Shown: positions 13,967-64,000, counted from the stretch's first letter. The stretch: DNA of 64,000 nt from an uncultured Aminicenantes bacterium (GCA_965195285.1 CBDAFS010000039.1:17022-81021), one strand, 5' to 3'. The notes: generated by a model from the letters alone, not told the origin. Program-made: numbers and translations.

Positions 13967-14057
13967 TTATGATATATCAATATCACTCAACAATTTCATT
14001 CATTCCTTAAATTAATAGACAATAACCAGAAATCATTTTAATTTTCGAGTAGTCTTA

Positions 14058-15117: not shown

Positions 15118-15146
<29 letters not shown>
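14058..15146 (-). CDS. Glycosyltransferase family 2
   Basis: VTVLMPVYNCESFLKEAINSILEQTFTDFEFIIINDGSTD and MDADD. 362 aa. Confidence 0.8.
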
Positions 15147-16985
<1,839 letters not shown>

Positions 16986-16986
<1 letters not shown>

Positions 16987-18833: not shown

Positions 18834-18868
18834 ACTTACCTCTTATTATTTTTTTGCTATCACAATAA

Positions 18869-20059: not shown

Positions 20060-20060
20060 C

Positions 20061-20909: not shown

Positions 20910-20965
20910 TAAATTTTAAACTTAGCTTTATATAAATACAGGTTTGTAAAAAAAATATAATCATT

Positions 20966-26378: not shown

Positions 26379-26411
26379 ATCCTTACAATTTGTTGATTTC
26401 AGTATTCCCGA

Positions 26412-27970: not shown

Positions 27971-28103
27971 CCAAAAATTATATGTTTTCACCCTGGCTTT
28001 GTCAACACCATTCAACCGACACCATGAGCGGTTTGGCAAACCTGATTTTCCATTCTACAAATAAAATGTAAATTAATGCAGGATGAAGCAATGATTAAAA
28101 AAT

Positions 28104-47929: not shown

Positions 47930-47959
47930 CTCGAATTGTCTAAATAGTATAGAGAAATT

Positions 47960-48796
47960 TTAGCTGGGTTCATTTAAATCACCGCCATTTTCCTTCTTTT
48001 TCTGTTCTTTGTATTCACGGCAAAACTTCAGATAGGATTGCATGTTTCTATCCTTACCGATTACAGAAAGTGTTGAAGTAATACACTCGGTAATTGATTT
48101 CCCCAGTACATTTAATACTATATAATCCAGGCCTTTTTCAATGGCTAGAGAAAGAAAATAAGCATTGATCAGATACCGCTTGGGTAAACCCTCGGACAAG
48201 GTACACAGGTTGGCAATGGTCTTTACCTGTGGAAAATCCAGTTTAAACAATTCCAGGGTATTTAAAAAAGTCTTGCCATTGGAAAAATCATCTTCTAACG
48301 GCCTTACCGTGGGGTCCAATAAAATGTGACTCCTTTCAATTCCCATATCCAGTAAATAGTCAACATACCTCTGGGCAATCAGCAGTGATTTCTCGGGGTA
48401 GATATTGGCCTTTGACTGATGATCATTTATCAGGGCAATAATTTTTACCTTATCATTCTGCATGATATTGATAATGGAATCCAGTTTTTTTTTATTAAAT
48501 TCAATATCTCCGATCATCAGATCTTTCTGGGCAATCTTGGTAACTTCTATCAGGGTTTCAATTTTATTGCTTCTGACCAAAACTTTCCCACCATTCTCTT
48601 CAACCACCGGAATGACTTCCCTTAAAAAAGGGACCTCATTGTGAAGCAATGATACCGCATTAAGCTGGATGTATTCAGCCCCCATTTCAACCTGAGCAGT
48701 AATTTCCCTTTTGATGAATTCGAAATCCATCTTGTTCATCTTGTCGAGAATCTTCTTGTTACAGGAATTTAACGAATTTCCAATTATTCTAATCAT
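47960..48796 (-). CDS. Pterin-binding (DHPS-like TIM barrel) domain protein
   Basis: MIRIIGNSLNS..., EMGAEYIQLNA and DPTVRPLE resemble pterin-binding/DHPS-fold proteins. Assignment is tentative. Confidence 0.35.
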   Translation of the reverse strand: MIRIIGNSLNSCNKKILDKMNKMDFEFIKREITAQVEMGAEYIQLNAVSLLHNEVPFLREVIPVVEENGGKVLVRSNKIETLIEVTKIAQKDLMIGDIEFNKKKLDSIINIMQNDKVKIIALINDHQSKANIYPEKSLLIAQRYVDYLLDMGIERSHILLDPTVRPLEDDFSNGKTFLNTLELFKLDFPQVKTIANLCTLSEGLPKRYLINAYFLSLAIEKGLDYIVLNVLGKSITECITSTLSVIGKDRNMQSYLKFCREYKEQKKKENGGDLNEPS

Positions 48797-48821
48797 TTTT
48801 TTTCTCTGATCTGTTAATCAA

Positions 48822-49733
48822 TTATACATTGAAGAATTCTTTTAAAATGGTTATCACATCCAGACCTGCTCTTTCCTGGCCCTCGACCGTTGATGCCCCC
48901 AGGTGAGGAGCTGGAAAGACCTTCTCATGATCAATCAGTTCAAACTGGTCCGGAGGTTCTTTTTCATAGACATCAAGGGCAACAGCTTTTAATTTATCTT
49001 CCTTCAATGTTCCCAACAAAGCCTTTTCATCCACCACACCGCCCCGGGCAACATTAATTAAAACGGCATTTTGCTTCATTAAATCAAACTCCTTGGCGGA
49101 TATCAGATTTTTGGTTGATTCATTCAGGGGCAGGTGTATGGAAATGAAATCCGATTTCATCAACAACTCTTCCAGCGAAACCTGTTTGGCATTGATATCG
49201 GTTTGAATCTCCAGCATATCGCAAAACAGTACATTCATTCCCATGGCCAGTTCGCGTTTTGCAATTTCTTTTCCAATTCTTCCGAAACCAATAATGCCGG
49301 CCGTCTTTCCATAAACCTCCATACCTTTGGAAAAAAACTTCTTTTCCCATTTATGCTCTTTCATACTTTTATAAGCCGGCCCGACAAACCTGCATATTCC
49401 CAGCATCAGAGCCAATGTATATTCAGCAACCGTAATCGAAGTGGCAAAGGGGGTGTTCCGAACTTCAATTCCCTGTGACTTGGCATATTCAACATCAACA
49501 TTATCGAGACCGATACCGGCTCGAACTACTAATTTCAGATTCGATCCGTGTTCCAGTATTTCTTTCCTTAATTTGGTTGCACTCCTGATCACCACGGCAT
49601 CGAATTTTCCGATCTCTCCCTTTAACACATCAGGTGCAAGGCCTGTATTTTCAATCACTTCAAATTCCGGAATTTCCTTTAATTGTTCTATGGCTTTGGG
49701 ACTCAACTTGTCAGCCAATAATATTTTTATCAA
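48822..49733 (-). CDS. D-3-phosphoglycerate dehydrogenase-like 2-hydroxyacid dehydrogenase
   Basis: GIIGFGRIGKEIAKR NAD motif. NVARGGVVDE. HLGAST. 303 aa. Confidence 0.75.
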   Translation of the reverse strand: MIKILLADKLSPKAIEQLKEIPEFEVIENTGLAPDVLKGEIGKFDAVVIRSATKLRKEILEHGSNLKLVVRAGIGLDNVDVEYAKSQGIEVRNTPFATSITVAEYTLALMLGICRFVGPAYKSMKEHKWEKKFFSKGMEVYGKTAGIIGFGRIGKEIAKRELAMGMNVLFCDMLEIQTDINAKQVSLEELLMKSDFISIHLPLNESTKNLISAKEFDLMKQNAVLINVARGGVVDEKALLGTLKEDKLKAVALDVYEKEPPDQFELIDHEKVFPAPHLGASTVEGQERAGLDVITILKEFFNV

Positions 49734-50033
49734 TTTTTATCCTCCTGTCCATTTTTTTGAACCATTAGAAAATTTCTCTGTATAAAAGAATCATTCTGTA
49801 ATGGGAAGTGATTTTTTTAACGGTATTGAGTCCAACATCAACCCCTTTAACCATCCAGCAGAGCTCAAATCGTCTGTTTTTCATTTTTATCAAATTAGCA
49901 TCATTAGGTTATCAAAATTTTGACTTGCTGTCAAGATTTAAAGTTGACCGGGTATATCTTTTCCCTTTACCTGCACAACTTCCTGCTGTATAATAAACTG
50001 GTGACAGCCGGATAAGTTCGGTGCCCGAACGAG

Positions 50034-50447
50034 GTGATAATCATGAAAAAAGAAGCCATTGAAAAGTATTTAAACCAAATAAGAAAAAACGCCTCCTTTA
50101 TTTCACCCGGGGTTCTGGAACCACTTCCATACAACAATGAAAAAGAAAACACATGGGTTGAGATAAAAAATCCGGAATTTACTTCCCTATGCCCCAAAAG
50201 CGGCTTGCCTGATTTTGGCTGTATTACCATTAAATACCTTCCGGACCGATATATTGTGGAATTGAAATCGTTAAAATATTATTTTATTCAATTTAGAAAT
50301 ACCGGGATTTTCTATGAAAATCTGAATCAATTGATCCTCGATCACTTGGTGGAAGTGATCAAACCGATCGAAATGATCATCCACTCAGAATTCACCCCCC
50401 GGGGTGGGATCAGTACCCGGATCACCTCTACCTATAAAAATAAATAG
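50034..50447 (+). CDS. queF: NADPH-dependent 7-cyano-7-deazaguanine reductase
   Basis: EFTSLCPKSGLPDFG (catalytic Cys). QueF motif ELKSLKYYF. 137 aa. Confidence 0.85.
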   Translation: MIIMKKEAIEKYLNQIRKNASFISPGVLEPLPYNNEKENTWVEIKNPEFTSLCPKSGLPDFGCITIKYLPDRYIVELKSLKYYFIQFRNTGIFYENLNQLILDHLVEVIKPIEMIIHSEFTPRGGISTRITSTYKNK

Positions 50448-50542
50448 GCTTCAGCATTATATGAAAACAATGAACATCCCGTGATTGGTAAAAAAGTTAA
50501 ACTGGTAATATTATTAAGTTATCATGTACAGGTAAGGCCAAG

Positions 50543-51523
50543 ATGAGAGCATTGATAACCGGAGCCACCGGATTTATCGGAAGTCATTTATCCGAATGGT
50601 TATTGAAAAAAGGCTTTGAAGTCCATTGTTTGATTAGAAAAACCAGTAACCTGCGCTGGATCAGACCGCTTCAGATCCGCCTGATTGAAGCTGACTTCAG
50701 TGACAGCCAGTCTCTTAATCGGGCTGTAGCGGGTATGGATTACATATTCCATCTGGGGGCTGTTATCAACTCAAATCAGTGGGAGACCCATTTCCGTGTT
50801 AATTTCATGAATACAAAATATTTGATAGAAGCCTGTCTGCGAAACAATCTCAATTTGAAAAAATTTGTTCTGGTCTCCAGTATTGCGGCCATGGGACCGG
50901 GTGAAAAAGATAAGTTTATGATTGAAACCGATCCCTGTAAGCCCCGATCTTTATACGGTAAAAGCAAGAGACTGGCTGAAAAAATCGTTTTAAAATATAA
51001 AGATACCATTCCCACGGCCATCATCAGACCTCCCAATGTGCTGGGCCCGAGGCAAAGAGAAATATACCTGGCCGCCAAACTCATCAAAATGCGATTGGTA
51101 CCCCGTATCGGAAATGAAGACAAACAGACCAGCCTGTGTTATGTGGGCGATCTGGTCGAAGCCATACGATTGGTTGCAGAAAGAGAGGAAGCCAATGGGC
51201 AGATATATCTGGTCACCGATTCCAACACCTATGCCTGGAAGGAAATAAGCGACCAGATAGCCAAAGAACTTGGAACCGGGAAGCTATTCCTGCGAACTCC
51301 TTACTCCATTCAATATATTATTGCCTTCATTTCCGAAGCCATCTCCACCATGACCCGTTCCACTCCCATTCTAACCATACAAGATTTGAAATCATCCAGA
51401 CATTTTTACTGGTTATATGATGACTCCAAAATAAGAAGGGAATTGGGTTTTATATCAAAAACCGATATGAAACAAGCAGTCCGGAAGACCATCCAGTGGT
51501 ACCGGGACCAGAATATGATCTGA
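50543..51523 (+). CDS. NAD-dependent epimerase/dehydratase family protein (extended SDR)
   Basis: ITGATGFIGSHL Rossmann motif. YGKSK catalytic Tyr-x3-Lys. 326 aa. Confidence 0.75.
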   Translation: MRALITGATGFIGSHLSEWLLKKGFEVHCLIRKTSNLRWIRPLQIRLIEADFSDSQSLNRAVAGMDYIFHLGAVINSNQWETHFRVNFMNTKYLIEACLRNNLNLKKFVLVSSIAAMGPGEKDKFMIETDPCKPRSLYGKSKRLAEKIVLKYKDTIPTAIIRPPNVLGPRQREIYLAAKLIKMRLVPRIGNEDKQTSLCYVGDLVEAIRLVAEREEANGQIYLVTDSNTYAWKEISDQIAKELGTGKLFLRTPYSIQYIIAFISEAISTMTRSTPILTIQDLKSSRHFYWLYDDSKIRRELGFISKTDMKQAVRKTIQWYRDQNMI

Positions 51524-51596
51524 TATTCTCAGTCCAGATTGACATCCTGGATTATTTGTGTTACTTAAATTTCTATTTATTAATCAATTCGGTATC

Positions 51597-53318
51597 ATGT
51601 CAAGAAAAACAATTATATTACACTTATTATTTTGCTTTATGCTAACCGCGATATGGTCACCCCCGATTCTGCCTGGAGCCAGTGAAAAAAGAATTTTTTT
51701 TTCCACAATCGATTTGAACCGGAATTTCAGTTTAAAATTGGGTGATGCCACGATACAGCCGGTTGCATTTTTTTCTGAATCCCTAACCGGGAAAACAATC
51801 AAAAGAACACTCTCCAACACCTATTTTCTCGGATTACCGGAAGAGGGTGTGCAAAAAAATTCGAAAAGATTCACGCGCGCACTACTTTTTAACTGTGGAC
51901 TTATATTAATTAGTTCAGTTCATTACTGGATAAAGTACAGTGAATGGATTGAGGATTGGCAGTATGAACTAACCTGGGAAGACCAAAAAATCCGGTTTTT
52001 TTCTATGGAAGCACATCGATTCGATTCAAATCCTTTTTTTACCAACTGGTCCCACGCCCTTTCGGGTGCCGCCTACTATAATTTTGCCCGCTATCACCGG
52101 TTGAATAAACTGGAATCACTTCTATTTATATTCGGCTCATCTTTATGGTGGGAATATTTTACTGAATGGCGCGAAGTGATATCAATTAACGATACGATCT
52201 ACTCTGGGATCGGCGGGGGACTATCAGTGGGAGAACCGCTGTACTGGATCGGGAGCTATTTTACACAAAAAAAGGGTATTGGGAATAAAATACTCGGTTT
52301 TATTTTCAATCCGGTTGTAGCCATAAATGATTTGCTGGACAACAAAAAACATATGAGTTATCTCGACCTTCAGCGGTTTGCCAGGCCTGAATTCAATTTA
52401 TTCATTGGCACCCAAATGGTATCCACCAGCGAAGATGAAAACAGCACCTCAACTCAATTTCATACCGGTCTCGACATTCGATTTTATACAATCGAAGGAT
52501 ACAGGGAACCCGGAACCGTAAATAAATTTATTAAAGACACCCTTTTAAGTGAATTATTTGTTGATTTAATCTTTGGAGCCAATACGTTAGAAGAGCACAG
52601 CATCTTTGCTAAAGCAGTTATATTCGGACATTTTATCCAAAAAATAAAACAAGACTCATACAAAAATCTAAAAGGGTACAGCTTTTTTGCAGGTGCGGGT
52701 TCTGCCTTTGATTATTTTAAAAAAAGGGCTGTTGTTTATTATGACCAATTTGAATATCACTTTGACTTTGCCGGAGGAGAAGAAGCTCCTCAGCCCACTG
52801 AGTTTACTGATAAACTGGCCATAATAAATTTAATCGGGCCGGTTTTCGAACTTTCCATTTACTCAGGCCAGTTCGAATTCAGATCATCTATCAGTGCTTA
52901 TATTGATTTTGCTCTATTGAATTCACTGGCTCTAAATGAATATTCAATTGATAATGATCTTTACGAACCACAAATGAAAACCACACTTTCACACTATGGA
53001 TATTACTATGCATTCGGATTTACATTTTCATCTGATATGGATTTGAATTATAAAAATATCCAGTTAAAAGGAAAAATAAAATACCAATACTACGACTCTA
53101 TTGAAGGCCTGGACAGGTTTCAAGATGATGTGGAAGATGATTGCAATATCAGGGATACCCGGTTTATGTATAAAATCAGTCTTGGTTATGCCCTATCAAA
53201 AAGTCCGGTAACAATCCAGCTTGCCTATGAACATATTGACCGGGAAGGAACACTCAAGGACATCACCCATACCTTCTCGGAAGATCGAATTTACGCCCAG
53301 CTGAAAATTTCATTATAA
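51597..53318 (+). CDS. Secreted hypothetical protein (possible outer-membrane protein)
   Basis: Signal-peptide-like N-terminus (MSRKTIILHLLFCFMLTAIWSPPILPGA). ~570 aa rich in aromatics and Gly with no enzymatic motifs. C-terminal ...RIYAQLKISL. Confidence 0.45.
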   Translation: MSRKTIILHLLFCFMLTAIWSPPILPGASEKRIFFSTIDLNRNFSLKLGDATIQPVAFFSESLTGKTIKRTLSNTYFLGLPEEGVQKNSKRFTRALLFNCGLILISSVHYWIKYSEWIEDWQYELTWEDQKIRFFSMEAHRFDSNPFFTNWSHALSGAAYYNFARYHRLNKLESLLFIFGSSLWWEYFTEWREVISINDTIYSGIGGGLSVGEPLYWIGSYFTQKKGIGNKILGFIFNPVVAINDLLDNKKHMSYLDLQRFARPEFNLFIGTQMVSTSEDENSTSTQFHTGLDIRFYTIEGYREPGTVNKFIKDTLLSELFVDLIFGANTLEEHSIFAKAVIFGHFIQKIKQDSYKNLKGYSFFAGAGSAFDYFKKRAVVYYDQFEYHFDFAGGEEAPQPTEFTDKLAIINLIGPVFELSIYSGQFEFRSSISAYIDFALLNSLALNEYSIDNDLYEPQMKTTLSHYGYYYAFGFTFSSDMDLNYKNIQLKGKIKYQYYDSIEGLDRFQDDVEDDCNIRDTRFMYKISLGYALSKSPVTIQLAYEHIDREGTLKDITHTFSEDRIYAQLKISL

Positions 53319-53324
53319 ATCAAT

Positions 53325-54032
53325 CTACAATAACTTAAAAACATCCTCTTCCTTCAAGAGTTTTTCAGCACTTCCAGCAAAGGCAAATTTACCATTGCGC
53401 ATCACATATCCCCTATCAACATACTGTAATGCCAGCCGGGCATTCTGTTCCACTATTAAAACTCCAATATCTTTTTTTAAAGCAACAAGTTTTTTAAATA
53501 GAATTTTCATATAATTGGGAGACAGGCCAGCAGTGGGTTCATCCAGGATGAGAAATTCCGGCTCTGTAATCAGAGACCGGGCCAATGAGAGTATCTGTCG
53601 TTCTCCCCCTGAAAGACTACCAGCAATACGTTTTAAAAGAGGTTCTAAAATTGGAAAAGTTCTGAGTACATTCTCAATCCTGGCAGCCAGTACTCCTCTA
53701 TCTTCCATGGTATATCCACCCATTTCCAGGTTTTCGTGAACCGTCATCCCGGAAAATACCTTGCCTCCATCAGGTACAAAAGCGATTCCGGATCTAAATA
53801 ACTCATAGGGTTTATTATGGATGATCGAAAGACTGTCTCTTTTAATGTCACCTTTTTTTATATACCCGTCATATGCATCTATTATGCCCACCAGGGATCT
53901 CAGCAAAGTGGTTTTTCCCGACCCGTTGGGCCCTAAAATAGCAACCATCTCACCTTTATTGATGATCATATTGATATCTTTAATGATATCAATATTGTTA
54001 TAACCTGCAGTCAGACTTTTAACTTCTATCAC
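53325..54032 (-). CDS. livF: Branched-chain amino acid ABC transporter ATP-binding protein
   Basis: GPNGSGKTTL, LSGGERQILSLARSL, LILDEPTAGL. 235 aa. Confidence 0.8.
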   Translation of the reverse strand: MIEVKSLTAGYNNIDIIKDINMIINKGEMVAILGPNGSGKTTLLRSLVGIIDAYDGYIKKGDIKRDSLSIIHNKPYELFRSGIAFVPDGGKVFSGMTVHENLEMGGYTMEDRGVLAARIENVLRTFPILEPLLKRIAGSLSGGERQILSLARSLITEPEFLILDEPTAGLSPNYMKILFKKLVALKKDIGVLIVEQNARLALQYVDRGYVMRNGKFAFAGSAEKLLKEEDVFKLL

Positions 54033-54829
54033 TCCTCTCCTCCAAAGTAGGCATCAATGACTTTCTTATCTTCCAGAACAACATTTGGTTTGCCATCCGC
54101 AATAACTTCACCTTTATCCAGAACAATGACCCGTTGTGCCACTTCCCGGACTGTTTGCATGTCATGTTCGGCAAAAACAATGGTTTTACCTGATTTTCTC
54201 CATTCCCTAAACAGAGCAATAATTCTCTTCCTGATTTCCGGGAACACACCAGCAGTGGGTTCATCAAATAAAAACAGTTCCGAATCAAGCGCCCGGGCTC
54301 TCATTAACTCCAGCAATCTTCTCTGGCCATGGGATAGATTACCGGCCATTTCATGGGCCATATCATCCAGTTCTGCATTTTTTAAATACATCCTGGATTC
54401 CTCTTCTATTCGTGTACAACTATATTTTATAAAAGGATTTAATCCATAAAAAAGACCTTCTCTTTTTCTCTCTTCCAAAGCAATTAACATATTATCCATC
54501 ACAGAAATTCCGGGAAATATTCTTCCAATCTGAAATGTTCGTCCGATTCCCCTTGCTGAAATATTGTAAGGTGAAAGTTTGACTATGTTTTGTCCCTTGA
54601 AATCAATAGATTTTGTATCTCTATTAGCATCCAGATAACCCATGATAACATTGATCAGGGTTGTTTTTCCGCTGCCATTTGGTCCGATAAGTGCTGTGAT
54701 GGATTGTTTTTCGATATTCAAATTGAGTTTGCTTAATGCTCTAACACCATCAAAACTTTTACTCAAATTCCGGATGGATAAAATATGATTTTCCAGATGA
54801 TTTCCGTTTTTCGCACTCATTTTTATCAT
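54029..54829 (-). CDS. livG: Branched-chain amino acid ABC transporter ATP-binding protein
   Basis: GPNGSGKTTL, LSHGQRRLLELMRA, LFLFDEPTAG. 266 aa. Confidence 0.8.
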   Translation of the reverse strand: MIKMSAKNGNHLENHILSIRNLSKSFDGVRALSKLNLNIEKQSITALIGPNGSGKTTLINVIMGYLDANRDTKSIDFKGQNIVKLSPYNISARGIGRTFQIGRIFPGISVMDNMLIALEERKREGLFYGLNPFIKYSCTRIEEESRMYLKNAELDDMAHEMAGNLSHGQRRLLELMRARALDSELFLFDEPTAGVFPEIRKRIIALFREWRKSGKTIVFAEHDMQTVREVAQRVIVLDKGEVIADGKPNVVLEDKKVIDAYFGGEE

Positions 54830-54839
54830 TTTATAAGAG

Positions 54840-55709
54840 CTATTTCCACTTTACTTTTCCCAATATTCCCTGGGGCCGGAATATCATCAATATCACCAGG
54901 ATTAATCCATATAACATCTGTCTGAGTTGTGCGGCAATGGATGAAGGCAATCCCAAAAATCTAAGAGCTTCCGGTATGGCTATTAAGAGAAAAGCACCCA
55001 GAATGGCGCCTCGAAGGGTTCCCATACCCCCAAAAATGACCATCAGCAGAATGGTAATGGATTCCATCACCGTAAAGCTCGAGGGATCAATAAAAGTGAT
55101 ATAATGGGCATATAATGCACCGGCAATTCCGGCAAAAAATGCGCCGGTCATAAACACCTTCAATTTAAAAAGAGGGGTGTTTTTTTTCAAAGCCCGGGCA
55201 GCTCGCTCATCTTCTCGGATGGCTTTCAAAACCCTTCCAAAAGGTCTTTTTACCAATAATATCAATAGGAAATAAGTAATAAAAGCAATCAATGCTACAA
55301 AAATCAAATATTGCCAGACCTCACTGAATTCAAATCCAAAAACAGATAAAGCTGGAATACCGGGCAGACCCATGGGACCCCGGGTAAGAGATACCCAGTT
55401 TTTAGCCACCACATAAGCAATGATGCCAAAGCCAAAGGTTGCCAGAGCCAGGTAATCTCCCTTCATTTTTATGGCCGGATAAGACACAATGGCTCCGGCA
55501 ATGGAAGCCAAAATTCCACCTATAAGCATTCCCAGAAGAGGGGGAAATCCCAAATTTAAAGCCAGTAAGGTTGATGTATAAGCTCCAACTAATGAAAAAG
55601 CAGCATGGCCAAGAGATGGGATACCGGTATAGCCGACTATGATATCAAGACTCATGGCCAGTATGGCATAAATCCCGAATATCACTAATATATGTAAAAA
55701 ATATTCCAC
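54840..55709 (-). CDS. livM: Branched-chain amino acid ABC transporter permease
   Basis: 289 aa polytopic permease of the LivM/BraE type. Confidence 0.75.
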   Translation of the reverse strand: MEYFLHILVIFGIYAILAMSLDIIVGYTGIPSLGHAAFSLVGAYTSTLLALNLGFPPLLGMLIGGILASIAGAIVSYPAIKMKGDYLALATFGFGIIAYVVAKNWVSLTRGPMGLPGIPALSVFGFEFSEVWQYLIFVALIAFITYFLLILLVKRPFGRVLKAIREDERAARALKKNTPLFKLKVFMTGAFFAGIAGALYAHYITFIDPSSFTVMESITILLMVIFGGMGTLRGAILGAFLLIAIPEALRFLGLPSSIAAQLRQMLYGLILVILMIFRPQGILGKVKWK

Positions 55710-55711
55710 GT

Positions 55712-56614
55712 TCAGCGCTCCTTTTTACCTAAAATTCCCTGGGGCCTGAACAACAGGAATATTAAAAATATTCCAAATACAATGGCATCCTTCCATCCGG
55801 CAGGCATGAACCAAACAGCCAGGTTCTCGGTAAATCCCAGGAAAAGACTTCCAACCAGGGCTCCCCAGATGCTGCCAATTCCTCCAATTATAACGGCAAT
55901 GATTCCTTTTAACAGAATGTTAAATCCCATGGTGGGTTCCAGATTGGTTTCCAGGGATATCAGCACACCGGAAAGCCCGGCAATAGCCGAACCCAGTATG
56001 AATGCAAACAGTATGATTTTTTCCGGGTTTATTCCCACGATACTGGCTGTTATTGGATCATTAGACACCGCCCTCATGGCTTTTCCAATCTTGGTGTATC
56101 CGGTAATGAATAGAACAAAAATAAATACAACCATTGCTGAACCAATGATGAGAATCTGTATGGGTGTAATTATTCCACCCAGAAAATGTAGCCCTTCTTT
56201 AACCGGTCCGGTTCTCAAGGTTAAAATTTGATTGCCATAAATCATGGCAATCAGATTCTGGATAAAAATGAATATCCCAAAAGAGGCCAGAAGTAAAATT
56301 AAATTGGATGCCTTCCGTTTCCTTAAAGGCTTATAAACCATTCTGTCAATCAAAATCCCTGCAATCGCAGCTACAACCATAGCTAACAAAGCAGCGAATA
56401 TATATAAAAATATTGGAGATGCTTCAGAACTTCCCCTCCTGGACTCCCCTACCCACCAACTCATCAATGAAAAAGCAGTATACGCCCCAACCGTATAAAC
56501 CGCACCATGAGCCAGATGAAAAAACCTTATAGTGGAATATATTATCGAAAAGCTTGCTGCAACCAACAAATAATTTCCGACTAAAATTAATGTATTAAAA
56601 AGTATCTGACTCAT
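55712..56614 (-). CDS. livH: Branched-chain amino acid ABC transporter permease
   Basis: 300 aa polytopic permease of the LivH/BraD type. Confidence 0.75.
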   Translation of the reverse strand: MSQILFNTLILVGNYLLVAASFSIIYSTIRFFHLAHGAVYTVGAYTAFSLMSWWVGESRRGSSEASPIFLYIFAALLAMVVAAIAGILIDRMVYKPLRKRKASNLILLLASFGIFIFIQNLIAMIYGNQILTLRTGPVKEGLHFLGGIITPIQILIIGSAMVVFIFVLFITGYTKIGKAMRAVSNDPITASIVGINPEKIILFAFILGSAIAGLSGVLISLETNLEPTMGFNILLKGIIAVIIGGIGSIWGALVGSLFLGFTENLAVWFMPAGWKDAIVFGIFLIFLLFRPQGILGKKER

Positions 56615-56693
56615 TTATGTTAACCAAACTTTTTATTTTAATTTTTTTCAATATGATTTGCAAAATAAATTTACTTTTTTTATATGCACTCTT

Positions 56694-57698
56694 TTACCAT
56701 AAATCACCTATAACATTAGCAAAAGCAATCATTCCATTTTTTGCGGATGATGTCTTTAAAGAATTAAGACTCTCAATAGCTTCACTAGTATTAACTTTAA
56801 TAATTCTTTTACATTGATCAATCGAACCGGAATCTTTGATTATCTCAAAACATTTTTTCAGACTTTTTTCATTATTTTTTTTACGTTTAAAAGTCTTTAA
56901 TAAAAAATTTCTATCTTTTTCATTGGCAAGTTGTAAAGCCATTATAAATGGTAATCTCATTTTTTTCTGTTTTATATCTCCTCCTAATTGTTTTCCAATG
57001 AGTCTTACATTTCCAATAATTTCAAGAACATCATCTTTGATTTGGAAAGCAACTCCCAAAAATTTACCATAAGTAGAGATTGAATTAATTTCCTTAATAT
57101 TTCCTCCCCCAAGAATTGCTCCAATTTTCAAACTGCATATGATCAATGAAGCTGTGGTTTTTGAAATCATTTCCATATATTGCTTTTCAGTGATGTTCTG
57201 ATTGTATTCAAAATCTAAATCAAGAAACTGACCTATATATAATTCTTTATATGTTTCTTTTAATGTTTCTTCTGATTTTAATATCCTATTAACAGGAATC
57301 TTATCATTTGAATACAATTCAGACATTGCAGCATGTGCAACGCTATTTAGGATTTCACCTATTATTACTGCTTTTTTTGCACCATGAGCAGAATAAACTG
57401 ATATAACTCCTCCTCTCAAGGATGATTCATCTAGAAAATCATCAATAATTAAAGTAGAAAAATGAAAAAGTTCAACAGCAATTGCTGCTGGTAGAATTAT
57501 GTTATATTCACCTCCAACAGATTCACAGGCTAATTTCATCAAGAAGGGTCTTTCTCTATGTCCTTTAGGCTTTAATGCAAATTCAATTATCTTTTTTATT
57601 TTAATTTTTTGAATATTTAAAAACTTGAAAATTTCATCATCAATTATTTTACTATTCTCTTTAAATATTCTATTGATAGATTGGTGTAAATTTATCAT
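56694..57698 (-). CDS. Polyprenyl diphosphate synthase (trans-isoprenyl diphosphate synthase)
   Basis: First Asp-rich motif LIIDDFLDE (DDxxD). Second motif FQIKDDVLE. 334 aa. Very AT-rich gene. Confidence 0.7.
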   Translation of the reverse strand: MINLHQSINRIFKENSKIIDDEIFKFLNIQKIKIKKIIEFALKPKGHRERPFLMKLACESVGGEYNIILPAAIAVELFHFSTLIIDDFLDESSLRGGVISVYSAHGAKKAVIIGEILNSVAHAAMSELYSNDKIPVNRILKSEETLKETYKELYIGQFLDLDFEYNQNITEKQYMEMISKTTASLIICSLKIGAILGGGNIKEINSISTYGKFLGVAFQIKDDVLEIIGNVRLIGKQLGGDIKQKKMRLPFIMALQLANEKDRNFLLKTFKRKKNNEKSLKKCFEIIKDSGSIDQCKRIIKVNTSEAIESLNSLKTSSAKNGMIAFANVIGDLW

Positions 57699-57904
57699 AA
57701 TGAAGAATATAATCTAAATCAATCAACTTCATATTTAATTTCAGATTCTGGCCTTTTTTTAGAGTTCTTAATTTTAAATAAAAACCTTTTTTTCATTAGA
57801 TCAAAAAGCTTTTTTGTTTTCAAATGTTTTTTTAAGATACGCTTAGTTGGCTTTTCTCCGAGAACCAATTGTGCCATTCAAATTCCTCCATATCCATATT
57901 AATA

Positions 57905-58699
57905 CTAATATTGAATATACTGCAATTTCTCAAATGTTTCAATTTGAGTTGAATAACTCCCTGCTTTCGTTTTTCCTGCAGTAATCACTAATTTTACTTT
58001 ATTCTTTAATTCAAAATCCTTCTTAAGATCAATTGTTGAAATTGCTAATATATCATCTGCTAAAGCAAAATCTCTAATTTCAATATTATTATTGAGTACA
58101 TCTTTTCTATTACAAACTTTTAAAGTTATATTAGCTTCTTTGGAATTTTGCCCGAGCAGACTTTTCTCTAACTTTTTGTATGTAATTGTCTCATTAGTAG
58201 GTATTATATATCGTGTTTTTTTGATATCTTTTACTTTTAAGAGATTATTATATTCTTTTAGATGTTCGTTATATTTATACCAATCACTTAGATGAATTGT
58301 ATAGGTGGTTTCCCATTTTTTTTCTGCGAAATATAATCCACTAATCAAAAATTTTATATACTCCTCACATGTTACATTAAAAGGAATTTCAATTTCATTT
58401 CCTTTTAAAGCTGAATTCAGTATTGTGAATATTATAATTTTTGACTTTGTTAATGCACTTATATTACATTCTTTTAATACTTTGAGTAGATTGGGGCAGA
58501 TATTTTTATATTCCAAAATAAATGAAGTAGTGAAGTAAGAAACAATAGCTATACTTATGAGGCCAAGATAATAATATAAAAGTTTTGAGATAGAGCTATC
58601 ATCAGGTGTGTTTATAATTACATCAAAAATAAATGTTATAAGTAATGAAAAAAATATCGAAAATAGAATATTTGAAGTATTTTTTAATTTATCTTTCAT
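57905..58699 (-). CDS. Hypothetical membrane protein (2 N-terminal TM segments plus soluble domain)
   Basis: 264 aa, AT-rich, no recognisable motifs. Confidence 0.4.
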   Translation of the reverse strand: MKDKLKNTSNILFSIFFSLLITFIFDVIINTPDDSSISKLLYYYLGLISIAIVSYFTTSFILEYKNICPNLLKVLKECNISALTKSKIIIFTILNSALKGNEIEIPFNVTCEEYIKFLISGLYFAEKKWETTYTIHLSDWYKYNEHLKEYNNLLKVKDIKKTRYIIPTNETITYKKLEKSLLGQNSKEANITLKVCNRKDVLNNNIEIRDFALADDILAISTIDLKKDFELKNKVKLVITAGKTKAGSYSTQIETFEKLQYIQY

Positions 58700-58716
58700 A
58701 ATTATTATTGGTTATA

Positions 58717-59841
58717 TTATTCATATATTTGAAACTTCCCACCCCTTACAATTTTGATTACAGCTTGTTGAATCACATCACCATTTTTATCAAATGTTGT
58801 ATCACCAACAATTCCTGGATAATGCTTTACTGTATATATATAATTTTTAATACTTTCCGCAGTTAATTCAGCATTTGATTCTAATATCGCCAATGATATA
58901 ATCTTAATAGCATCATAACTCAAGGCAGCAAAAATATCTGGTTCCACATTATATTTATCTACATATTTTTTTACAAATTTTTTGATATTATGGGCATTAC
59001 TTTTTGGATCATAAGTTCGAGCTGAATATATAACACCTTCGGCAGAATCACCTGCAATCTTAAGAATCTCAGGATCCTCAAACATCACAGTGCTTAAAAA
59101 CTGTTTGTTAATGTCAAGCTCTCTTGATTGTCTAAGTAATTGCGCTAGTTCTTTATAGCCGATAATATAGATTGCATCTGGATTATACTTTTTTATTTTA
59201 GATAATTGTAAACGAAAATCTGTAGTTCCTTGATCAAAAGTTTCTGAAATCAAGATTTCTCCGCCTAATTTTATATAATTTGTGGTAAATACATCTTTTA
59301 TTCCTAAGCCATAGTCATTATTTACATAAAGAATAGCAACTTTTTCCAATTTCATTTTTCTAATTGAAAATTCAGCCATAATATTCCCTTCAAAAATATC
59401 AGATGCACAATTTCGAAAAATATAATCACCAGCATTAGTTATTTCAGGTGCAGAAGATGTTGGAGAAAGTAATACAACTTTGTTTTTATTCAAAATTGGC
59501 GATACTGCCAAAGTCACACTACTGAACAAACCACCAATTATAACTGGTACATTATGTGTTGATATCAACATTTGAACTGCTAAAACACCTGTTTTTGGAT
59601 CACCTTTTGAATCTTCAAAAATTACTTCGATTTTTTTCTTAGTACTTTTTTTTTCATTTATTTCATCAATAGCAAGATTAATAGCATTTTTTGCTGTTTC
59701 CCCATATTTAGCACCATCTCCAGTTAAAGGCATAATAGCGCCAATCTTTATTACAGTTTCCTCTTTTATTGGTTTACAACTTTGAGCACAAATAATCAAC
59801 AATACTAAACAGACTGCTAATGAATAATTTTTTTTACTCAT
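58717..59841 (-). CDS. Lipoprotein, type-I periplasmic binding protein (LivK/branched-chain amino acid binding family)
   Basis: Lipobox LLIICAQSC. IKIGAIMPLTGDGAKYGE..VPVIIGGLFSSV is typical of Leu/Ile/Val-binding SBPs. AT-rich, unlike livFGMH. Confidence 0.7.
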   Translation of the reverse strand: MSKKNYSLAVCLVLLIICAQSCKPIKEETVIKIGAIMPLTGDGAKYGETAKNAINLAIDEINEKKSTKKKIEVIFEDSKGDPKTGVLAVQMLISTHNVPVIIGGLFSSVTLAVSPILNKNKVVLLSPTSSAPEITNAGDYIFRNCASDIFEGNIMAEFSIRKMKLEKVAILYVNNDYGLGIKDVFTTNYIKLGGEILISETFDQGTTDFRLQLSKIKKYNPDAIYIIGYKELAQLLRQSRELDINKQFLSTVMFEDPEILKIAGDSAEGVIYSARTYDPKSNAHNIKKFVKKYVDKYNVEPDIFAALSYDAIKIISLAILESNAELTAESIKNYIYTVKHYPGIVGDTTFDKNGDVIQQAVIKIVRGGKFQIYE

Positions 59842-60081
59842 AAAAACCTCCCAACAACCTTAATTATAAAATTAATTAAATCAAATTCAAAAAAAAAAGT
59901 CAAATTGAAAAAAGTATTTTCATAAATTAATATACATAAACATTTAAATAAGAAGAATTGAATAAATTCGATTTAAAATCCCAATTCAAATATTGACAAA
60001 AAAAAAGAATTTATTAATAATACAAATGGGATACAGAATTTATTTCTTATAGTTAAAATTAGTTTTTTCAAAATAAAACAA

Positions 60082-61314
60082 ATGTATTACATAGAACTAT
60101 TTTCAGGTGCCGGTGGATTATCCGAAGGTTTCATAAAAGCAGGGTTTAAACCAATAGCCCATATTGAGATGGATAAAAATTCATGTTGTACATTAAAAAC
60201 CAGACATGCTTATCACTATTTAAAAAAAAAGAGGAAACTGGATATATATCAATCCTATTTAAAAAAAGAAATATCACGCGAAGATTTGTATTCAACAATC
60301 CCTGATGATTTAATTGAATCAATTATAGAGACAGAAATTACAGAAAATAATCTAAAACTTATTTTCAATAAAATAAAATATTTTCAAAAAAGTAAAAGTA
60401 TATCAGATATTGATTTAATTATTGGGGGCCCTCCCTGTCAGGCATATTCAACCATTGGAAGAGCAGCAACAAAAAACAAAAAGTCTTTTGACCTTAGAAA
60501 TTATTTGTATCAACTATACGGTCGTTTTTTATTGGAATTCAAACCAAAATTATTCTTATTTGAAAATGTACCGGGTATAAAAACAGCAGGAAATGGTCAG
60601 TATTATTGTAGTTTGAAGGACGAATTCAGAAATTTTGGATATGAAATTGAAGATAGAATGCAAAATGCTGCAGATTATGGCGTCATACAGAGAAGAGAAA
60701 GAGTTATCATAATTGGCTGGCGGAAGGATATACAGTTTAGATATCCTGAATTTGAGAATATTGAGAATAAATGGACGGTTAAGGATATATTATTCGATTT
60801 ACCTGAATTGAAAGCTGGAGAATCAATTAATATTGGAAAGTATATAAGTAAACCATCTGAATATATAAAAATGTTCAATATCCGTAATGGAAGTGATATT
60901 TTGACCCAACATATAGCTAGACCTCATAATAAAAAAGATTTAAGAATTTATAAACTGGCAATTGAAAAGTGGAACAAAAACCATAAGAGAATAATGAATT
61001 TCGAAATTCCAGACAAAATTAGAACCCAGAAAAACATTTCATCATTCCTTGATCGATTTAAAGTTGTATCAAAAGATGATTTATCACATACATTAATAGC
61101 TCATATAGCAAAAGATGGACATCATTATATTCATCCGGATATTGAACAGTTAAGATCTATTAGTATTAGGGAAGCAGCAAGGATCCAATCTTTCGAAGAT
61201 AATTACTATTTTGAAGGCCCAAGAACTTCTATTTTTAATCAAATTGGAAATGCAGTCCCTCCACTCTTGTCCTATGCTATTGCTTCAAAAATAAGGGATA
61301 TTATAAATGTCTAA
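60082..61314 (+). CDS. DNA (cytosine-5)-methyltransferase
   Basis: Motif I ELFSGAGGL. Motif IV GGPPCQAYS. Motif VI LFENVPG. Motif X QIGNAVPP. Variable TRD in between. 410 aa. Confidence 0.85.
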   Translation: MYYIELFSGAGGLSEGFIKAGFKPIAHIEMDKNSCCTLKTRHAYHYLKKKRKLDIYQSYLKKEISREDLYSTIPDDLIESIIETEITENNLKLIFNKIKYFQKSKSISDIDLIIGGPPCQAYSTIGRAATKNKKSFDLRNYLYQLYGRFLLEFKPKLFLFENVPGIKTAGNGQYYCSLKDEFRNFGYEIEDRMQNAADYGVIQRRERVIIIGWRKDIQFRYPEFENIENKWTVKDILFDLPELKAGESINIGKYISKPSEYIKMFNIRNGSDILTQHIARPHNKKDLRIYKLAIEKWNKNHKRIMNFEIPDKIRTQKNISSFLDRFKVVSKDDLSHTLIAHIAKDGHHYIHPDIEQLRSISIREAARIQSFEDNYYFEGPRTSIFNQIGNAVPPLLSYAIASKIRDIINV

Positions 61315-63403
61315 AGAGCTAGCTTTTAAGCCCAAGGCAAGATTATTGTTACAATTAGGTGAACAACTAATCCGTAATGAAAGCATAGCACTTATGGAAA
61401 TTATCAAAAATTCATATGATGCTGATGCCTCTAAAGTATCAATATCCATGAAAAATGTTGATGACACAAAAAAAGGTGAAATAATCATTGAAGATAATGG
61501 TATCGGAATGGATGAAAGAATTATAGAAGATGTATGGATGCAACCAGGAAGTAATTATAAATCATCATTATTTGAAAAAAGAGTTAGAACCGTAAAATAT
61601 AAAAGATTACCAATAGGAGAAAAGGGAATTGGAAGATTTGGGGTACACCGTCTGGGTCAGGAAATTGAGATAATCAGCAAGAAAGAAGGTAAAAATGAAG
61701 TTTATTTAAAAATTAATTGGAGTAAATTTGAGAAAGATGACTTTTTGTCAAATATAAAAGTAAATTTATTTGAAAGACTACCTCAATATTTTCTTAAGGG
61801 AAATACAGGTACTAAAATAATAATTAATAAACTACGAAAATCCTGGAGTCGTATTGAAGTGAGAGAATTATATAGATCAATAAACACTTTGAATTCCCCT
61901 TTTAAATCATATGACTCTTTCGAAGTTGACTTTTCAATTGATAAAAAGAAATGGTTAGAAGGACTTCTTTCATTTGATGATATAAAAAAATATGCCCTTT
62001 ATTATTCCATAGCCTCTATTGAAGGAAATGAAATCAAAGATTTCAAGTATGAATTCCGTCCCTGGGATACAATGGTAAAACTAAATGAAAGGAAAGTTGA
62101 AGATAAGCATATCAGGATGGTAAAAAAGATTTATGATGAAGAAAAAAGAAAAAATGTTTATGTTGATATTGATCTAAATAAATCTAAAATAGGAAAGATA
62201 AGTTTTGAGATTTTAATTTTCGATAGGGAAAGAAGAATATTATCTTTAGGAGTTACCGATAGAAAAGGATTTGATGAATACCTAAATGAAAATGGTGGTA
62301 TAAGGGTTTTCAGGGATGGAATTAGAATATATGATTATGGTGAAAAAAGTAATGATTGGCTTGACCTTGACATAAAAAGAGTTAATCGACCCGGGGAAAC
62401 AATTAGTAATAATCTTGTTATGGGTGCAGTCTATCTTGATCGAGAAAGTAGTACTGATTTAGTTGAAAAAACAAATAGAGAAGGTTTCATTGAAAATAAT
62501 GCGCTATCTGAATTTATATTGGCTATTGATTTTGCTTTAAACAATATTTTGACATATAGAAGTATTGATAAAAATAAAGTCAGAACAATATATAGTAATA
62601 TTGATACAAATGAACCTGTTACTGAAAATTTGCGAGAACTGAAGAACAAAATAGAAAAAAATATTGAAAAAGGGGAATTTAAAAAGGAACTATTAAAAAC
62701 AATAAAAAACATTGATAAAGATTACAAATATATAAAAGAGATTTATGTAAAAAGCGCTAGTGCTGGTTTAAGTCTTAGTATTGTCATCCACGAAGTTGAA
62801 AAAATTTTAGCAGAATTGGTAAAAATAGTAGAAGCAACAGGATCAAGAGAAAGAATAAAATTTCTAGTAAACCACCTCGATAAAATTGTTAATGATTATG
62901 CAACCATAATTAAACAAAGCAAAAAGGAAAAAAGTAATCTAAAATCTCTCATCGATCAATCTCTTTTCAATTTAACCTATAGGATTAAGGCACATAATCT
63001 GAACGTAATCAGATCTTACGAAAAATATAAAGAAAATCCAGTTGTTACATGCGCACAAAATTTGGTAATAAGCGTAATCATGAATATCATTGATAATTCA
63101 ATCTTCTGGATAAATTATGCAAATAGACAAGTAAAAAAACTATATATCACATTAACCGATGAAATACCGGAACATACTTCAATATTAATTGCAGATAATG
63201 GTCCGGGATTTCATATTTCTCCAGAAGACGCAATAAAGCCCTTTATAACGGAAAAACCAGGAGGTATGGGGCTAGGATTACATCTCGCAGATGAAGTTAT
63301 GAATGCACAGGGCGGAAAACTATTATTTCCTGAAAAATTTGATTTCAAGCTACCAGTAGACCTTCAAAATGGTGCAAAAATTTTACTAGCTTTTAAAAAT
63401 TAA
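61307..63403 (+). CDS. Dual-GHKL ATPase protein: N-terminal MutL/MORC-like Bergerat domain plus C-terminal histidine-kinase-like ATPase domain
   Basis: N-terminal EIIKNSYDADA / IEDNGIGMD / GEKGIGRFG. C-terminal NIIDNSIFW / IADNGPGF / GGMGLGLHLADEV. Possible H-box SIVIHEVEKIL before the C-terminal domain. Start overlaps the MTase stop (ATGTCTAA). Confidence 0.65.
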   Translation: MSKELAFKPKARLLLQLGEQLIRNESIALMEIIKNSYDADASKVSISMKNVDDTKKGEIIIEDNGIGMDERIIEDVWMQPGSNYKSSLFEKRVRTVKYKRLPIGEKGIGRFGVHRLGQEIEIISKKEGKNEVYLKINWSKFEKDDFLSNIKVNLFERLPQYFLKGNTGTKIIINKLRKSWSRIEVRELYRSINTLNSPFKSYDSFEVDFSIDKKKWLEGLLSFDDIKKYALYYSIASIEGNEIKDFKYEFRPWDTMVKLNERKVEDKHIRMVKKIYDEEKRKNVYVDIDLNKSKIGKISFEILIFDRERRILSLGVTDRKGFDEYLNENGGIRVFRDGIRIYDYGEKSNDWLDLDIKRVNRPGETISNNLVMGAVYLDRESSTDLVEKTNREGFIENNALSEFILAIDFALNNILTYRSIDKNKVRTIYSNIDTNEPVTENLRELKNKIEKNIEKGEFKKELLKTIKNIDKDYKYIKEIYVKSASAGLSLSIVIHEVEKILAELVKIVEATGSRERIKFLVNHLDKIVNDYATIIKQSKKEKSNLKSLIDQSLFNLTYRIKAHNLNVIRSYEKYKENPVVTCAQNLVISVIMNIIDNSIFWINYANRQVKKLYITLTDEIPEHTSILIADNGPGFHISPEDAIKPFITEKPGGMGLGLHLADEVMNAQGGKLLFPEKFDFKLPVDLQNGAKILLAFKN

Positions 63404-63421: not shown

Positions 63422-64000
63422 ATGTATCATATTGATATACCTAAGAATGGATCCGTAGTAATTATAGATGATAAAATCAAAGAAGTTATACCTTTATTTA
63501 ATATACTTTCAAAAGCTGGAATTTCCTTTACTTATTATTCAGGTACTGATCTTGAAGAATTACCTGAAAAACCTATCCAAACGATAAGGGCAGTTTTTCT
63601 TGATATTCAATTAATACCTGCTTTAAATGCTCATAGCTATTCACAAATGGCTCTAAATTTGCTTGAAAAAATTATTCCAGACGATAATGGTCCTTATATT
63701 CTGTTAATCTGGAGTACAAATCAAAGGCAATATGCAGAAACACTTGAAGCACAGATTATAGGCCCTAATTATTCAAGAAGACCAGCAATAATAATACATT
63801 TAGATAAAATAGATTATTTTAAACAAGAAATACTACAAAAAAATAGTAACACACAAGAAGTGAAATTTATCCCTAAATCTGATGCATTTAAATCTATCAC
63901 AAAAAAAATAAATTCTGAATTAGAAAAGGTTAAGGTTTTCCACCTTTTCACCTTATGGTCCGATATAATAAATAATTCTGCAAATGAACATGTAAACAAT
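63422..64000 (+). CDS. Receiver (REC)-domain protein, partial (continues past window end)
   Basis: Hand translation: MYHIDIPKNGSVVIIDDKIKEVIPLF..IRAVFLDIQLIPALN. Acidic DD pocket and an LDIQLP-type phospho-acceptor motif. AGGGGG Shine-Dalgarno site 10 nt upstream. No stop before 64000. Confidence 0.5.
   Translation, partial: MYHIDIPKNGSVVIIDDKIKEVIPLFNILSKAGISFTYYSGTDLEELPEKPIQTIRAVFLDIQLIPALNAHSYSQMALNLLEKIIPDDNGPYILLIWSTNQRQYAETLEAQIIGPNYSRRPAIIIHLDKIDYFKQEILQKNSNTQEVKFIPKSDAFKSITKKINSELEKVKVFHLFTLWSDIINNSANEHVNN

Follow-up and report, generated by a model that had tools for sequence, protein, structure and literature searches.

Recurrent LIV/HAAT-type importer operon with a prenyl synthase family gene and a probably exchanged 5' module in an uncultured Aminicenantes bacterium

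The window analyzed here is a stretch of 64,000 nucleotides (nt) from an uncultured Aminicenantes bacterium (GCA_965195285.1 CBDAFS010000039.1:17022-81021). Its minus strand carries, between positions 59841 and 53325, the genes of an ATP-binding cassette (ABC) importer of the LIV/HAAT type (HAAT, hydrophobic amino acid uptake transporter), in which three genes part the binding-protein gene from livH. One of the three encodes a divergent member of the trans-prenyl diphosphate synthase family and another encodes protein X, which belongs to a new family. Taken as a whole, the locus is best explained by module exchange on a clade of LIV/HAAT-type importers, and this explanation is probably correct. 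The operon would belong to a distinct clade in which a variable enzyme cassette separates the binding-protein gene from livH, and in which the binding protein and the cassette travel together.

The operon has eight genes, in the order binding protein, X, a small open reading frame (ORF), prenyl synthase, LivH, LivM, LivG and LivF, which are presumably co-transcribed. All are on one strand, with gaps of 17, 27, 20, 79, 2 and 10 nt and one overlap of 4 nt. The first gene (58717..59841; this and the other operon coordinates are on the minus strand) encodes a Peripla_BP_6 binding protein, a probable lipoprotein with a lipobox-like AQSC sequence and a non-canonical pocket (PF13458, 188.2 bits against a cut-off of 31.7). 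Its GC content at third codon positions (GC3) is 0.163. Protein X (57905..58699, GC3 0.177) has 264 residues with two transmembrane (TM) segments and a C-terminal domain of about 190 residues. The basic 52-residue ORF that follows (57719..57877) is preceded by a GGAGG ribosome-binding site and is a called gene in contig L081 of a second assembly, although its reality is uncertain; it was missing from the gene list of the initial annotation. The synthase family protein (56694..57698, GC3 0.170) has 334 residues. Next is the 79-nt spacer (56615..56693), which contains the step in GC content and the inferred breakpoint.

The remaining four genes form the resident core. The first of them encodes the LivH-like permease (55712..56614, PF02653, GC3 0.405), which has 70-73% identity to LivH of loci L084 and L082. 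The LivM-like permease (54840..55709, PF02653, GC3 0.400) is 81% identical to that of L084 and 79% to that of L101. The two ATPases are the LivG-like protein with its BCA_ABC_TP_C tail (54029..54829, PF00005 and PF12399, GC3 0.330, 63% identity to L084) and the LivF-like protein (53325..54032, PF00005, GC3 0.360, 71% identity to L084). The parts of a HAAT/LIV-type importer are present: a Peripla_BP_6 binder, two PF02653 permeases and two PF00005 ATPases, with PF12399 on LivG. The gene calls and Pfam matches bear out the gene content and coordinates of the initial annotation, which had listed livFGMH, the synthase, a 2-TM protein and a binding lipoprotein. Upstream of the operon, a divergent intergenic region (59842..60081) with a GC content of about 0.20 presumably contains the promoters of this operon and of its divergent neighbor. 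Terminator and promoter scans of the operon gave matches at chance level, with no terminator predicted in the spacer between the synthase gene and livH, and an Rfam search of the 53-64 kb region found no riboswitch or leader.

The same set of genes is found upstream of livHMGF elsewhere. A scan of species-representative genomes with LivH produced no close relative (the best matches, at 66% and 58%, are on short contigs), and a large protein database contains relatives of LivH at 67-73% and of the binding protein at 58-64% identity. The comparison loci, referred to by L numbers, are metagenomic, and some are cut by contig ends. Two of them are complete. L091 has a binding protein, a 297-residue 2-TM protein, a synthase, a 50-residue ORF and livHMGF, and L094 has a binding protein, X, a 57-residue ORF, a synthase and livHMGF. 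Loci L095-97 consist of a binding protein, X, a 63-residue ORF and a synthase, after which the contig ends, and L092 consists of a binding protein and X, also followed by the contig end. A variant in L098/99 has a binding protein, a 37-residue ORF, a synthase and a 223-residue multi-TM protein in front of livHMGF; L084, described below, counts as another variant. All five sampled close relatives of the binding protein are counted as synthase loci with genes on one strand, L092 among them with its contig stopping after X. The GC3 of the liv-linked X/synthase loci ranges from about 0.2 to about 0.65, so their source organisms are very different. The conserved unit of binding protein, X, small ORF and synthase precedes livHMGF in at least five other lineages, and the synthase is an integral member of it.

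This recurrence contradicts the initial annotation, in which the synthase and the 2-TM protein had been taken as an insertion between livH and a LivK-like gene. The binding protein is not a remnant livK either, since the tree described below places it with the synthase-linked loci, in the same unit as the synthase. Distant livH loci normally have the binding-protein gene right beside livH, and a polyprenyl synthase was found within 10 kb in none of 80 cases. No description of such an operon type was found in a search of the searchable literature. Scans of viral contigs with X and with the binding protein gave no matches, and a plasmid search returned only generic synthases of at most 30% identity.

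The nearest relatives of the livHMGF core, L084, L101 and L082, carry different cassettes, and none of them has a canonical adjacent livK. In L084 (4730-13303) the order is binding protein, a 52-residue ORF, a divergent synthase, an M28 peptidase, a 690-residue sigma54-type AAA+ protein and livHMGF. The slot in L101/102 (L101 5250-13185) contains a binding protein, a 398-residue 2-TM protein of unknown family, a radical S-adenosylmethionine (SAM) enzyme, an unknown protein of 220 residues and a short-chain dehydrogenase/reductase (SDR), whereas in L082/83 only a SAM methyltransferase is found before livH. Synteny with relatives, which the initial annotation had named as a means of telling insertion from ancestry, gives a divided answer: the gene order recurs, with locally uniform composition, in L091, L094 and L095, but these are not the nearest relatives of the core.

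The core and the 5' module have separate histories. LivH, LivM, LivG and LivF of the window are 70, 81, 63 and 71% identical to their counterparts in L084, whereas the binding protein has 44% and the synthase 28% identity. Against L091, the four core proteins have 54, 64, 46 and 42% identity, the binding protein 61% and the synthase 47.5%. In neighbor-joining (NJ) trees of the core (LivH, LivM and LivF), the groups {window, L084, L101} and {window, L084} are each present in 200 of 200 bootstrap replicates. In the NJ tree of the binding protein, {window, L091, L092, L094, L095} has the same support (200/200), whereas {window, L084} never appears (0/200). Because trees and identities are discordant in this way, the type of binding protein follows the type of cassette and not the lineage of the core. 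This co-inheritance is the main argument for a functional coupling of binder and cassette. The best reading of the separate histories is that the 5' part of the operon, binding protein and enzymes together, would have been replaced as a unit, and this modular-exchange account is, taken by itself, quite likely.

The breakpoint can be placed in the 79-nt spacer, because the affinity to L084 extends across LivH, nucleotide similarity begins at the livH ATG, and the composition changes there. Similarity at the nucleotide level to L084 and L082 starts at the ATG, with none upstream of it. A breakpoint inside livH was considered and ruled out: LivH of the window is nearer to L084 than to L091 over its full length. 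The proposal that a foreign cassette replaced the native substrate-binding gene therefore survives in part. The foreign composition and a binding-protein history unlike that of livHMGF agree with it, but the idea of an unrelated insertion does not stand.

The nearest solved structures of the binding protein, 3TD9, 4GNR, 4N0Q and LivJ/LivK, are amino-acid binders. The LivJ pocket residues Ser79, Thr102 (Ser in the window protein), Tyr150 and Tyr202 are conserved. In a docking study, Ser79 and Thr102 were the polar contacts of LivJ, in addition to a list of hydrophobic residues (PMC6983066). Glu226 and Gly227 of LivJ are replaced by Val252 and Met253, which are part of the motif FLSTVMFED (residues 248-256). 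The motif FLS[TIF][VAS]MFED is common to each of the seven binding proteins that are linked to a synthase; at the positions of Glu226 and Gly227, L101 has Ala and Leu. Binding proteins of the FLSxxMFED type gave at least 826 hits at E <= 1e-30. An acidic residue is retained at the Glu226 position in LivJ, 3TD9, 4GNR and 4N0Q, and Asp or Glu is found there in 62 of the 64 livH-linked binders of synthase-free loci compared to none of the 120 nearest database relatives of the window protein. A standard alpha-amino acid is an improbable ligand. The pocket suggests one that keeps a carboxylate-type handle but probably has no alpha-ammonium group. The system resembles LivJ/LivK-LivHMGF of Escherichia coli (HAAT, TC 3.A.1.4) in having one binder, two permeases and two ATPases and in keeping the pocket residues Ser79, Thr102 (as Ser), Tyr150 and Tyr202. 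It differs in the three genes that part the binder from livH, in the change of Glu226-Gly227 to Val-Met, and in the separate history of the 5' module.

The synthase matches PF00348 over its full length (186.6 bits, gathering score 27), but is under all 16 NCBIfam equivalog cut-offs (IdsA, GGPPS, FPPS, HepT and IspB among them). The best match is archaeal IdsA, at 218.5 against a cut-off of 468. Of the DDxxD motifs named in the initial annotation, the first is present (DDFLD, residues 86-90), whereas the second is in fact DDVLE (residues 222-226); its last position is Glu or Asp among members of the liv-linked clade. The clade retains both Asp-rich motifs and GQxxD, and the DDFLD of the window protein has no insertion. 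Compared to the consensus of about 130 generic relatives, GGKRxRP has become KGHRERP in the window protein, RRG has become RGG, KT has become TT and GKxT has become KKMR. Across the clade the corresponding changes are to xG[HNMQ]RERP (this motif is wholly lost in L098 and L084), to RGG, RQG or RCG, to TT and to K[MK]R. The altered motifs are those that bind the diphosphates of isopentenyl diphosphate (IPP) and of the allylic substrate. Ser and Thr occupy positions -5 and -4 before the first Asp-rich motif, a region in which type I geranylgeranyl diphosphate (GGPP) synthases have an aromatic residue. In view of these clade-wide changes at the substrate site, the synthase is probably a specialized and not a housekeeping enzyme.

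The likeness to archaeal IdsA and type I GGPP synthases (PF00348) consists of the full-length match, DDFLD without an insertion, GQxxD and DDVLE; the equivalog scores and the four altered motifs set the window enzyme apart. An exhaustive HMMER search found about 12 clusters (at 50% identity) above 200 bits, with 35-54% identity, followed by the generic family. The L095 enzyme itself makes up one of them, and the enzymes of L091 and L094 match the top cluster, P0242, most closely (51-56%). A metagenome scan with the synthase returned four weak generic relatives only, which retain GGKRVRP and have no liv genes linked to them (L087, L089).

An ordinary branched-chain amino acid importer, accompanied by an ordinary GGPP or farnesyl diphosphate (FPP) synthase and directing leucine carbon into isoprenoid lipids, would be another interpretation of such an operon. 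It has a published precedent in the archaeon Calditenuis ramacidaminiphagus, in which liv clusters are collocated with idsA, the gene for GGPP synthase, and with the gene for hydroxymethylglutaryl-CoA (HMG-CoA) reductase, hmgcR (PMC12979851). The collocation was interpreted, with a leucine-to-mevalonate argument, as leucine feeding the synthesis of isoprenoid lipids, and the transporter genes were described as horizontally acquired (PMC12979851). This is the closest published parallel, because LIV-type genes are physically associated with a short-chain prenyl diphosphate synthase. The IdsA match of the window synthase and the amino-acid ligands of the nearest solved binders are in line with it. 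However, the Calditenuis case is archaeal, mevalonate-based and one of collocation only, whereas the operon described here is from a bacterium with the methylerythritol phosphate (MEP) pathway and has a fixed gene order that includes X, a divergent synthase and an altered pocket. The host backbone encodes a uppS-cdsA-dxr-rseP cluster (23887-28039) and ispD (33500-34213), and Dxr and IspD belong to the MEP and not to the mevalonate pathway. The operon contains no HMG-CoA or leucine-catabolic gene, the sister cassettes carry radical SAM/SDR or peptidase genes, and the binding protein is missing the acidic pocket residue of canonical members. On account of these differences in pocket, synthase, host pathway (MEP) and sister cassettes, which are non-isoprenoid, the leucine-to-lipid model suits this operon less well and is unlikely.

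The backbone of the window has a GC3 of 0.444 ± 0.031 (39 genes), against which the synthase, X and binding-protein genes have z-scores of -8.8, -8.6 and -9.1, respectively. The genes livG and livF, at 0.33 and 0.36, are likewise under the backbone (z of -3.7 and -2.7). Averaged over 300 nt, the GC content is 0.38 at 56.45 kb but only 0.24 at 56.6 kb, and livH itself has a GC3 that increases along the gene, from 0.28 (5' end) to 0.48 (3' end). The GC profile confirms the initial annotation in that the three genes are strongly AT-rich, with z about -9, and that the step is at the start of livH. The AT-rich block extends for about 9.5 kb, from 56,615 to about 66,155, and contains two divergent gene sets, the right part having been read from the overlapping contig L100. 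At the right border, near 66,155, backbone composition returns abruptly at a convergent Peptidase_C69 gene (GC3 0.47); the genes of L100 have a GC3 of 0.17-0.25 within the block and of 0.36-0.52 in the backbone beyond it. Both borders are sharp and coincide with gene boundaries. Atypical composition with sharp borders and phylogenetic incongruence relative to the flanking genes, both seen here, are features of integrative genomic islands.

Vertical inheritance is unlikely to account for these data. According to this explanation the operon is ancestral, and the AT-richness of its 5' part results from a gene-specific bias, such as low expression, xenogeneic-silencer-like selection or fast evolution. 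A GC3 gradient from cassette through core to flanks in all loci agrees with it, as do the identities to L091 and L094, which are mutually consistent for binder and core (54-64%). However, the step amounts to 0.23 GC3 units here compared to 0.03-0.08 elsewhere, and the adjoining restriction-modification (R-M) genes, which are functionally unrelated, have an equally low GC3. In composition-corrected tetranucleotide usage the left half of the block is the most deviant segment, correlating with the backbone at r of 0.42-0.49, whereas a liv segment of equally short size gives 0.81-0.87. The conflict between the core and binding-protein trees, each with 200 of 200 replicates, is also contrary to vertical descent.

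That an unrelated foreign cassette took the place of the native livK in a canonical livK-livHMGF operon, bringing the synthase and 2-TM genes as accidental passengers, is quite unlikely. The strong AT step at the start of livH, the adjoining R-M system of like composition and the usual position of the binding-protein gene right before livH in distant relatives could be explained in this way. This explanation is largely refuted by the recurrence of the gene order: several lineages, independent of each other and ranging in GC3 from 0.2 to 0.65, have it before livHMGF. The type of binding protein co-varies with the cassette, both the synthase and the binding protein have clade-specific motif changes, and a canonical adjacent livK is absent from the nearest core relatives, which also disagrees with accidental passage.

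Protein X has two N-terminal TM segments (residues 7-33 and 44-63), and its predicted topology is N-in with a cytoplasmic C-terminal domain. It had no match in Pfam, NCBIfam, PADLOC or the Protein Data Bank (PDB), including a search with an X profile against PDB and Pfam, and a word-seeded search with X returned only X itself. Synteny revealed homologs in the corresponding place of the operon in L092 (37% identity, E = 4e-32), L095 (30%, 7e-26) and L094 (26%, 5e-23), and the 297-residue 2-TM protein of L091 is perhaps a member of the family. X is a new family, as judged from sequence, defined by two N-terminal TM segments and a C-terminal domain of about 190 residues, with its gene directly after that of the binding protein. 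A HepS/HepT-like heteromeric synthase in which X serves as the small subunit was considered and rejected, as no similarity supports it.

An ORF of 37-63 residues is found beside the synthase in every related locus. A start of the MAQL[VL]L type is common to the window, L095 and L094, but nothing beyond MAQLxL is conserved; there is no conserved Trp or Cys, and the ORFs are Lys-rich. The 50-residue ORF of L091 (3837-3989), which overlaps the synthase gene at its 3' end, has the C terminus CDTFWH; the ComX-like position and the C-terminal Trp are features of that locus only.

The layout is reminiscent of ComQ in ComQXPA: a PF00348 enzyme with degenerate IPP-binding motifs is accompanied by a small ORF. 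A synthase-family enzyme that prenylates the small adjacent peptide as a signal could account for the abutting ORF in every locus, for the FWH end of the L091 ORF and for the altered IPP-site motifs, which ComQ likewise has. This is nevertheless very improbable. The operon has no conserved Trp-containing precursor and no ComP/ComA-type kinase or regulator, and the enzyme has no Pfam or NCBIfam affinity to ComQ. The small ORFs have at most MAQLxL in common and are rich in Lys, which is expected of ORFs that arise by chance where DNA is AT-rich. The transporter of the operon is an importer and not an exporter.

The proteins of the window are on record from a 138.9-kb NCBI contig and from a second assembly, consisting of Logan contigs of run ERR12308021, with which the window was compared. 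Over 47905-59920 the window has a 100% identical counterpart in contig L081, which crosses the composition step between livH and the synthase gene. Contig L100 starts at 59892, is identical over an overlap of 4109 nt and reaches 9.4 kb beyond the window. A chimeric join is unlikely, because each border is inside one contig of the second assembler, with the caveat that the reads may be shared. That a metagenome assembler joined an AT-rich segment of another organism to this genome is hardly credible in spite of the metagenomic source and of the break of the Logan assembly inside the block, considering that both borders (56.6 and 66.15 kb) are within single contigs 100% identical to the window, are at intact gene boundaries in a plausible operon, and that the same architecture is found in other samples. 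The Logan split at 59892-59920, with a 29-nt overlap, is in the intergenic region of 20% GC between the binding-protein and dcm-type genes and may reflect a graph branch, low complexity or strain heterogeneity.

Several observations weigh against the exchange of a 5' module, or against parts of it. The trees are NJ trees of few taxa from metagenomic fragments. There is no close relative with the locus as it would have been before the exchange, so that the direction of the exchange is read from composition alone; L084 and L101 could have changed instead, with the window keeping the older type of module. A milder GC3 gradient, in which the cassette is lower than livHMGF and livHMGF lower than the flanks, was found in every locus (L084, L091, L092, L094, L098, L101 and the window) at host GC contents of 0.2-0.8, and part of the AT bias may for this reason be intrinsic to these genes. 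The same gradient points to horizontal mobility of the operon type as a whole, with the cassette the more mobile part. A metabolic need is not evident, as the host is already equipped with the MEP pathway. A single-sequence model of X has a predicted local distance difference test (pLDDT) score of 36.7 and is unusable. The reading of the pocket draws on a presumed contact between Glu226 of LivJ and the alpha-ammonium group of the ligand, for which the docking study mentioned above gave no confirmation.

The mode of transfer is a further point on this side. The ten genes of the block encode no integrase or recombinase domain, no tRNA was found as far as 9.4 kb past the window, and the borders have no repeat of 11 nt or longer. 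The initial annotation had likewise seen no integrase or attachment repeats within the window, and the extension of 9.4 kb beyond position 64000 yielded neither an integrase nor a tRNA. A bounded block without an integrase points to recombination of the homologous or illegitimate kind, not to site-specific integration. The composition-corrected tetranucleotide usage of the left and R-M halves of the block correlates at r = 0.53 only, and because of this dissimilarity a single transfer event for both halves is unproven. The earlier suggestion of one mobile island shared with the methyltransferase/GHKL operon is correct in that the two are contiguous, equally AT-rich and part of one bounded block of about 9.5 kb, but the r value does not extend this to a single origin. 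In having an AT-rich variable cassette beside conserved genes, a slot with varying content and no integrase or attachment sites, the locus resembles the integrase-less replacement islands of O-antigen and capsule genes. It is unlike them in what is exchanged, which is not a cluster for glycan synthesis but the 5' half of the genes for an ABC importer, with that of the specificity-determining binder among them.

With module exchange as the preferred explanation, the following sequence of events can be proposed. The X-synthase module would have come from a much more AT-rich donor and would have been placed in front of a resident livHMGF core, with the 79-nt spacer as the junction. A single transcript would start in the AT-rich divergent region 59842-60081. 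The lipoprotein binder would capture the ligand, LivHM would import it and LivGF would power the import, while the cytoplasmic prenyl-diphosphate enzyme and membrane-anchored X might act on the imported compound or alongside it. An import-and-prenylate function is possible but tentative. Somewhat more speculative is an undescribed 'import-and-modify' class of ABC operons, in which a binder with a non-amino-acid pocket and its matched enzymes are swapped onto LivHMGF, and in which the synthase-like enzyme would be a prenyltransferase acting on the ligand or on a small peptide, with X as its partner.

The right half of the AT-rich block is formed by the divergent R-M operon on the plus strand. 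Its first gene encodes a Dcm-type C5 DNA methyltransferase (60082..61314; PF00145, 205 bits; TIGR00675, 171.8 against a cut-off of 100.65; GC3 0.217). The second gene (61307..63403, GC3 0.199) encodes a GHKL ATPase protein that resembles the BbrUII/HgiDII restriction enzymes (PF13589; NF050001 at 89.7 bits, below the cut-off of 550). Only the 5' part of the third, an unknown ORF of 442 residues (63422..64000), is in the window, and the rest is in L100. The operon continues outside the window with an HNH_2 nuclease and an HhH-GPD glycosylase to about 66,155 (L100 3531-6264 corresponds to 63422-66155). The glycosylase may have a Vsr-like role, as the partner of the C5 methylase in T:G mismatch repair. 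Beyond the island, L100 10966-13502 (about 70857-73393) encodes PqqD and two radical SAM/SPASM proteins, a trio of backbone composition that resembles maturases of ribosomally synthesized and post-translationally modified peptides.

A second AT-rich block (13016-21916, minus strand, GC3 0.17-0.31) contains two family 2 glycosyltransferases (GT2), a methyltransferase-GT2 fusion, a 615-residue methyltransferase/radical SAM/SPASM protein, an ABC_tran and ABC2_membrane pair (Wzt/Wzm-like) and a 2-hydroxyacid dehydrogenase. It resembles an ABC-transporter-dependent glycan (O-antigen-like) locus, a type that is usually low in GC. Among the comparison loci, the neighbors of the operon are repeatedly defense or mobility genes (integrase, DUF87, MmeI and N6_N4 methyltransferase). 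Upstream of the L084 operon are N6_N4 methyltransferase and HEPN/nucleotidyltransferase genes, and L101 is flanked by Prok-JAB/ThiF genes upstream and a phage-type integrase downstream. Locus L002 (1-1400; a Sedimentisphaerales metagenome-assembled genome, LivH 58%) has no binding-protein gene before livH, but has a divergent P-loop ATPase instead. This ATPase has a GAGKT motif and is DUF87/HerA-like by eye; a DUF87 gene is also found upstream of the L098 operon.

The interpretation of the AT-rich island as horizontally transferred, which the initial annotation had favored, is reasonable, but its content is different from that described there: it is a recurrent, undescribed operon type with an exchangeable 5' module. 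A generic foreign island is replaced by a specific structure with mapped borders, in which the exchangeable cassettes are prenyl synthase-like, radical SAM/SDR or peptidase/AAA+. LIV/HAAT systems are routinely annotated as importers of branched-chain amino acids. If the present findings are confirmed, the automated substrate annotation of the large binder subfamily without the acidic residue (0 of 120 with Asp or Glu) is probably wrong. Two uncharacterized families would be defined, that of protein X and the prenyl synthase clade whose substrate-site motifs are rewired. Such operons would offer a tractable case of modular evolution, with the specificity of a transporter and the downstream chemistry moving together between genomes.

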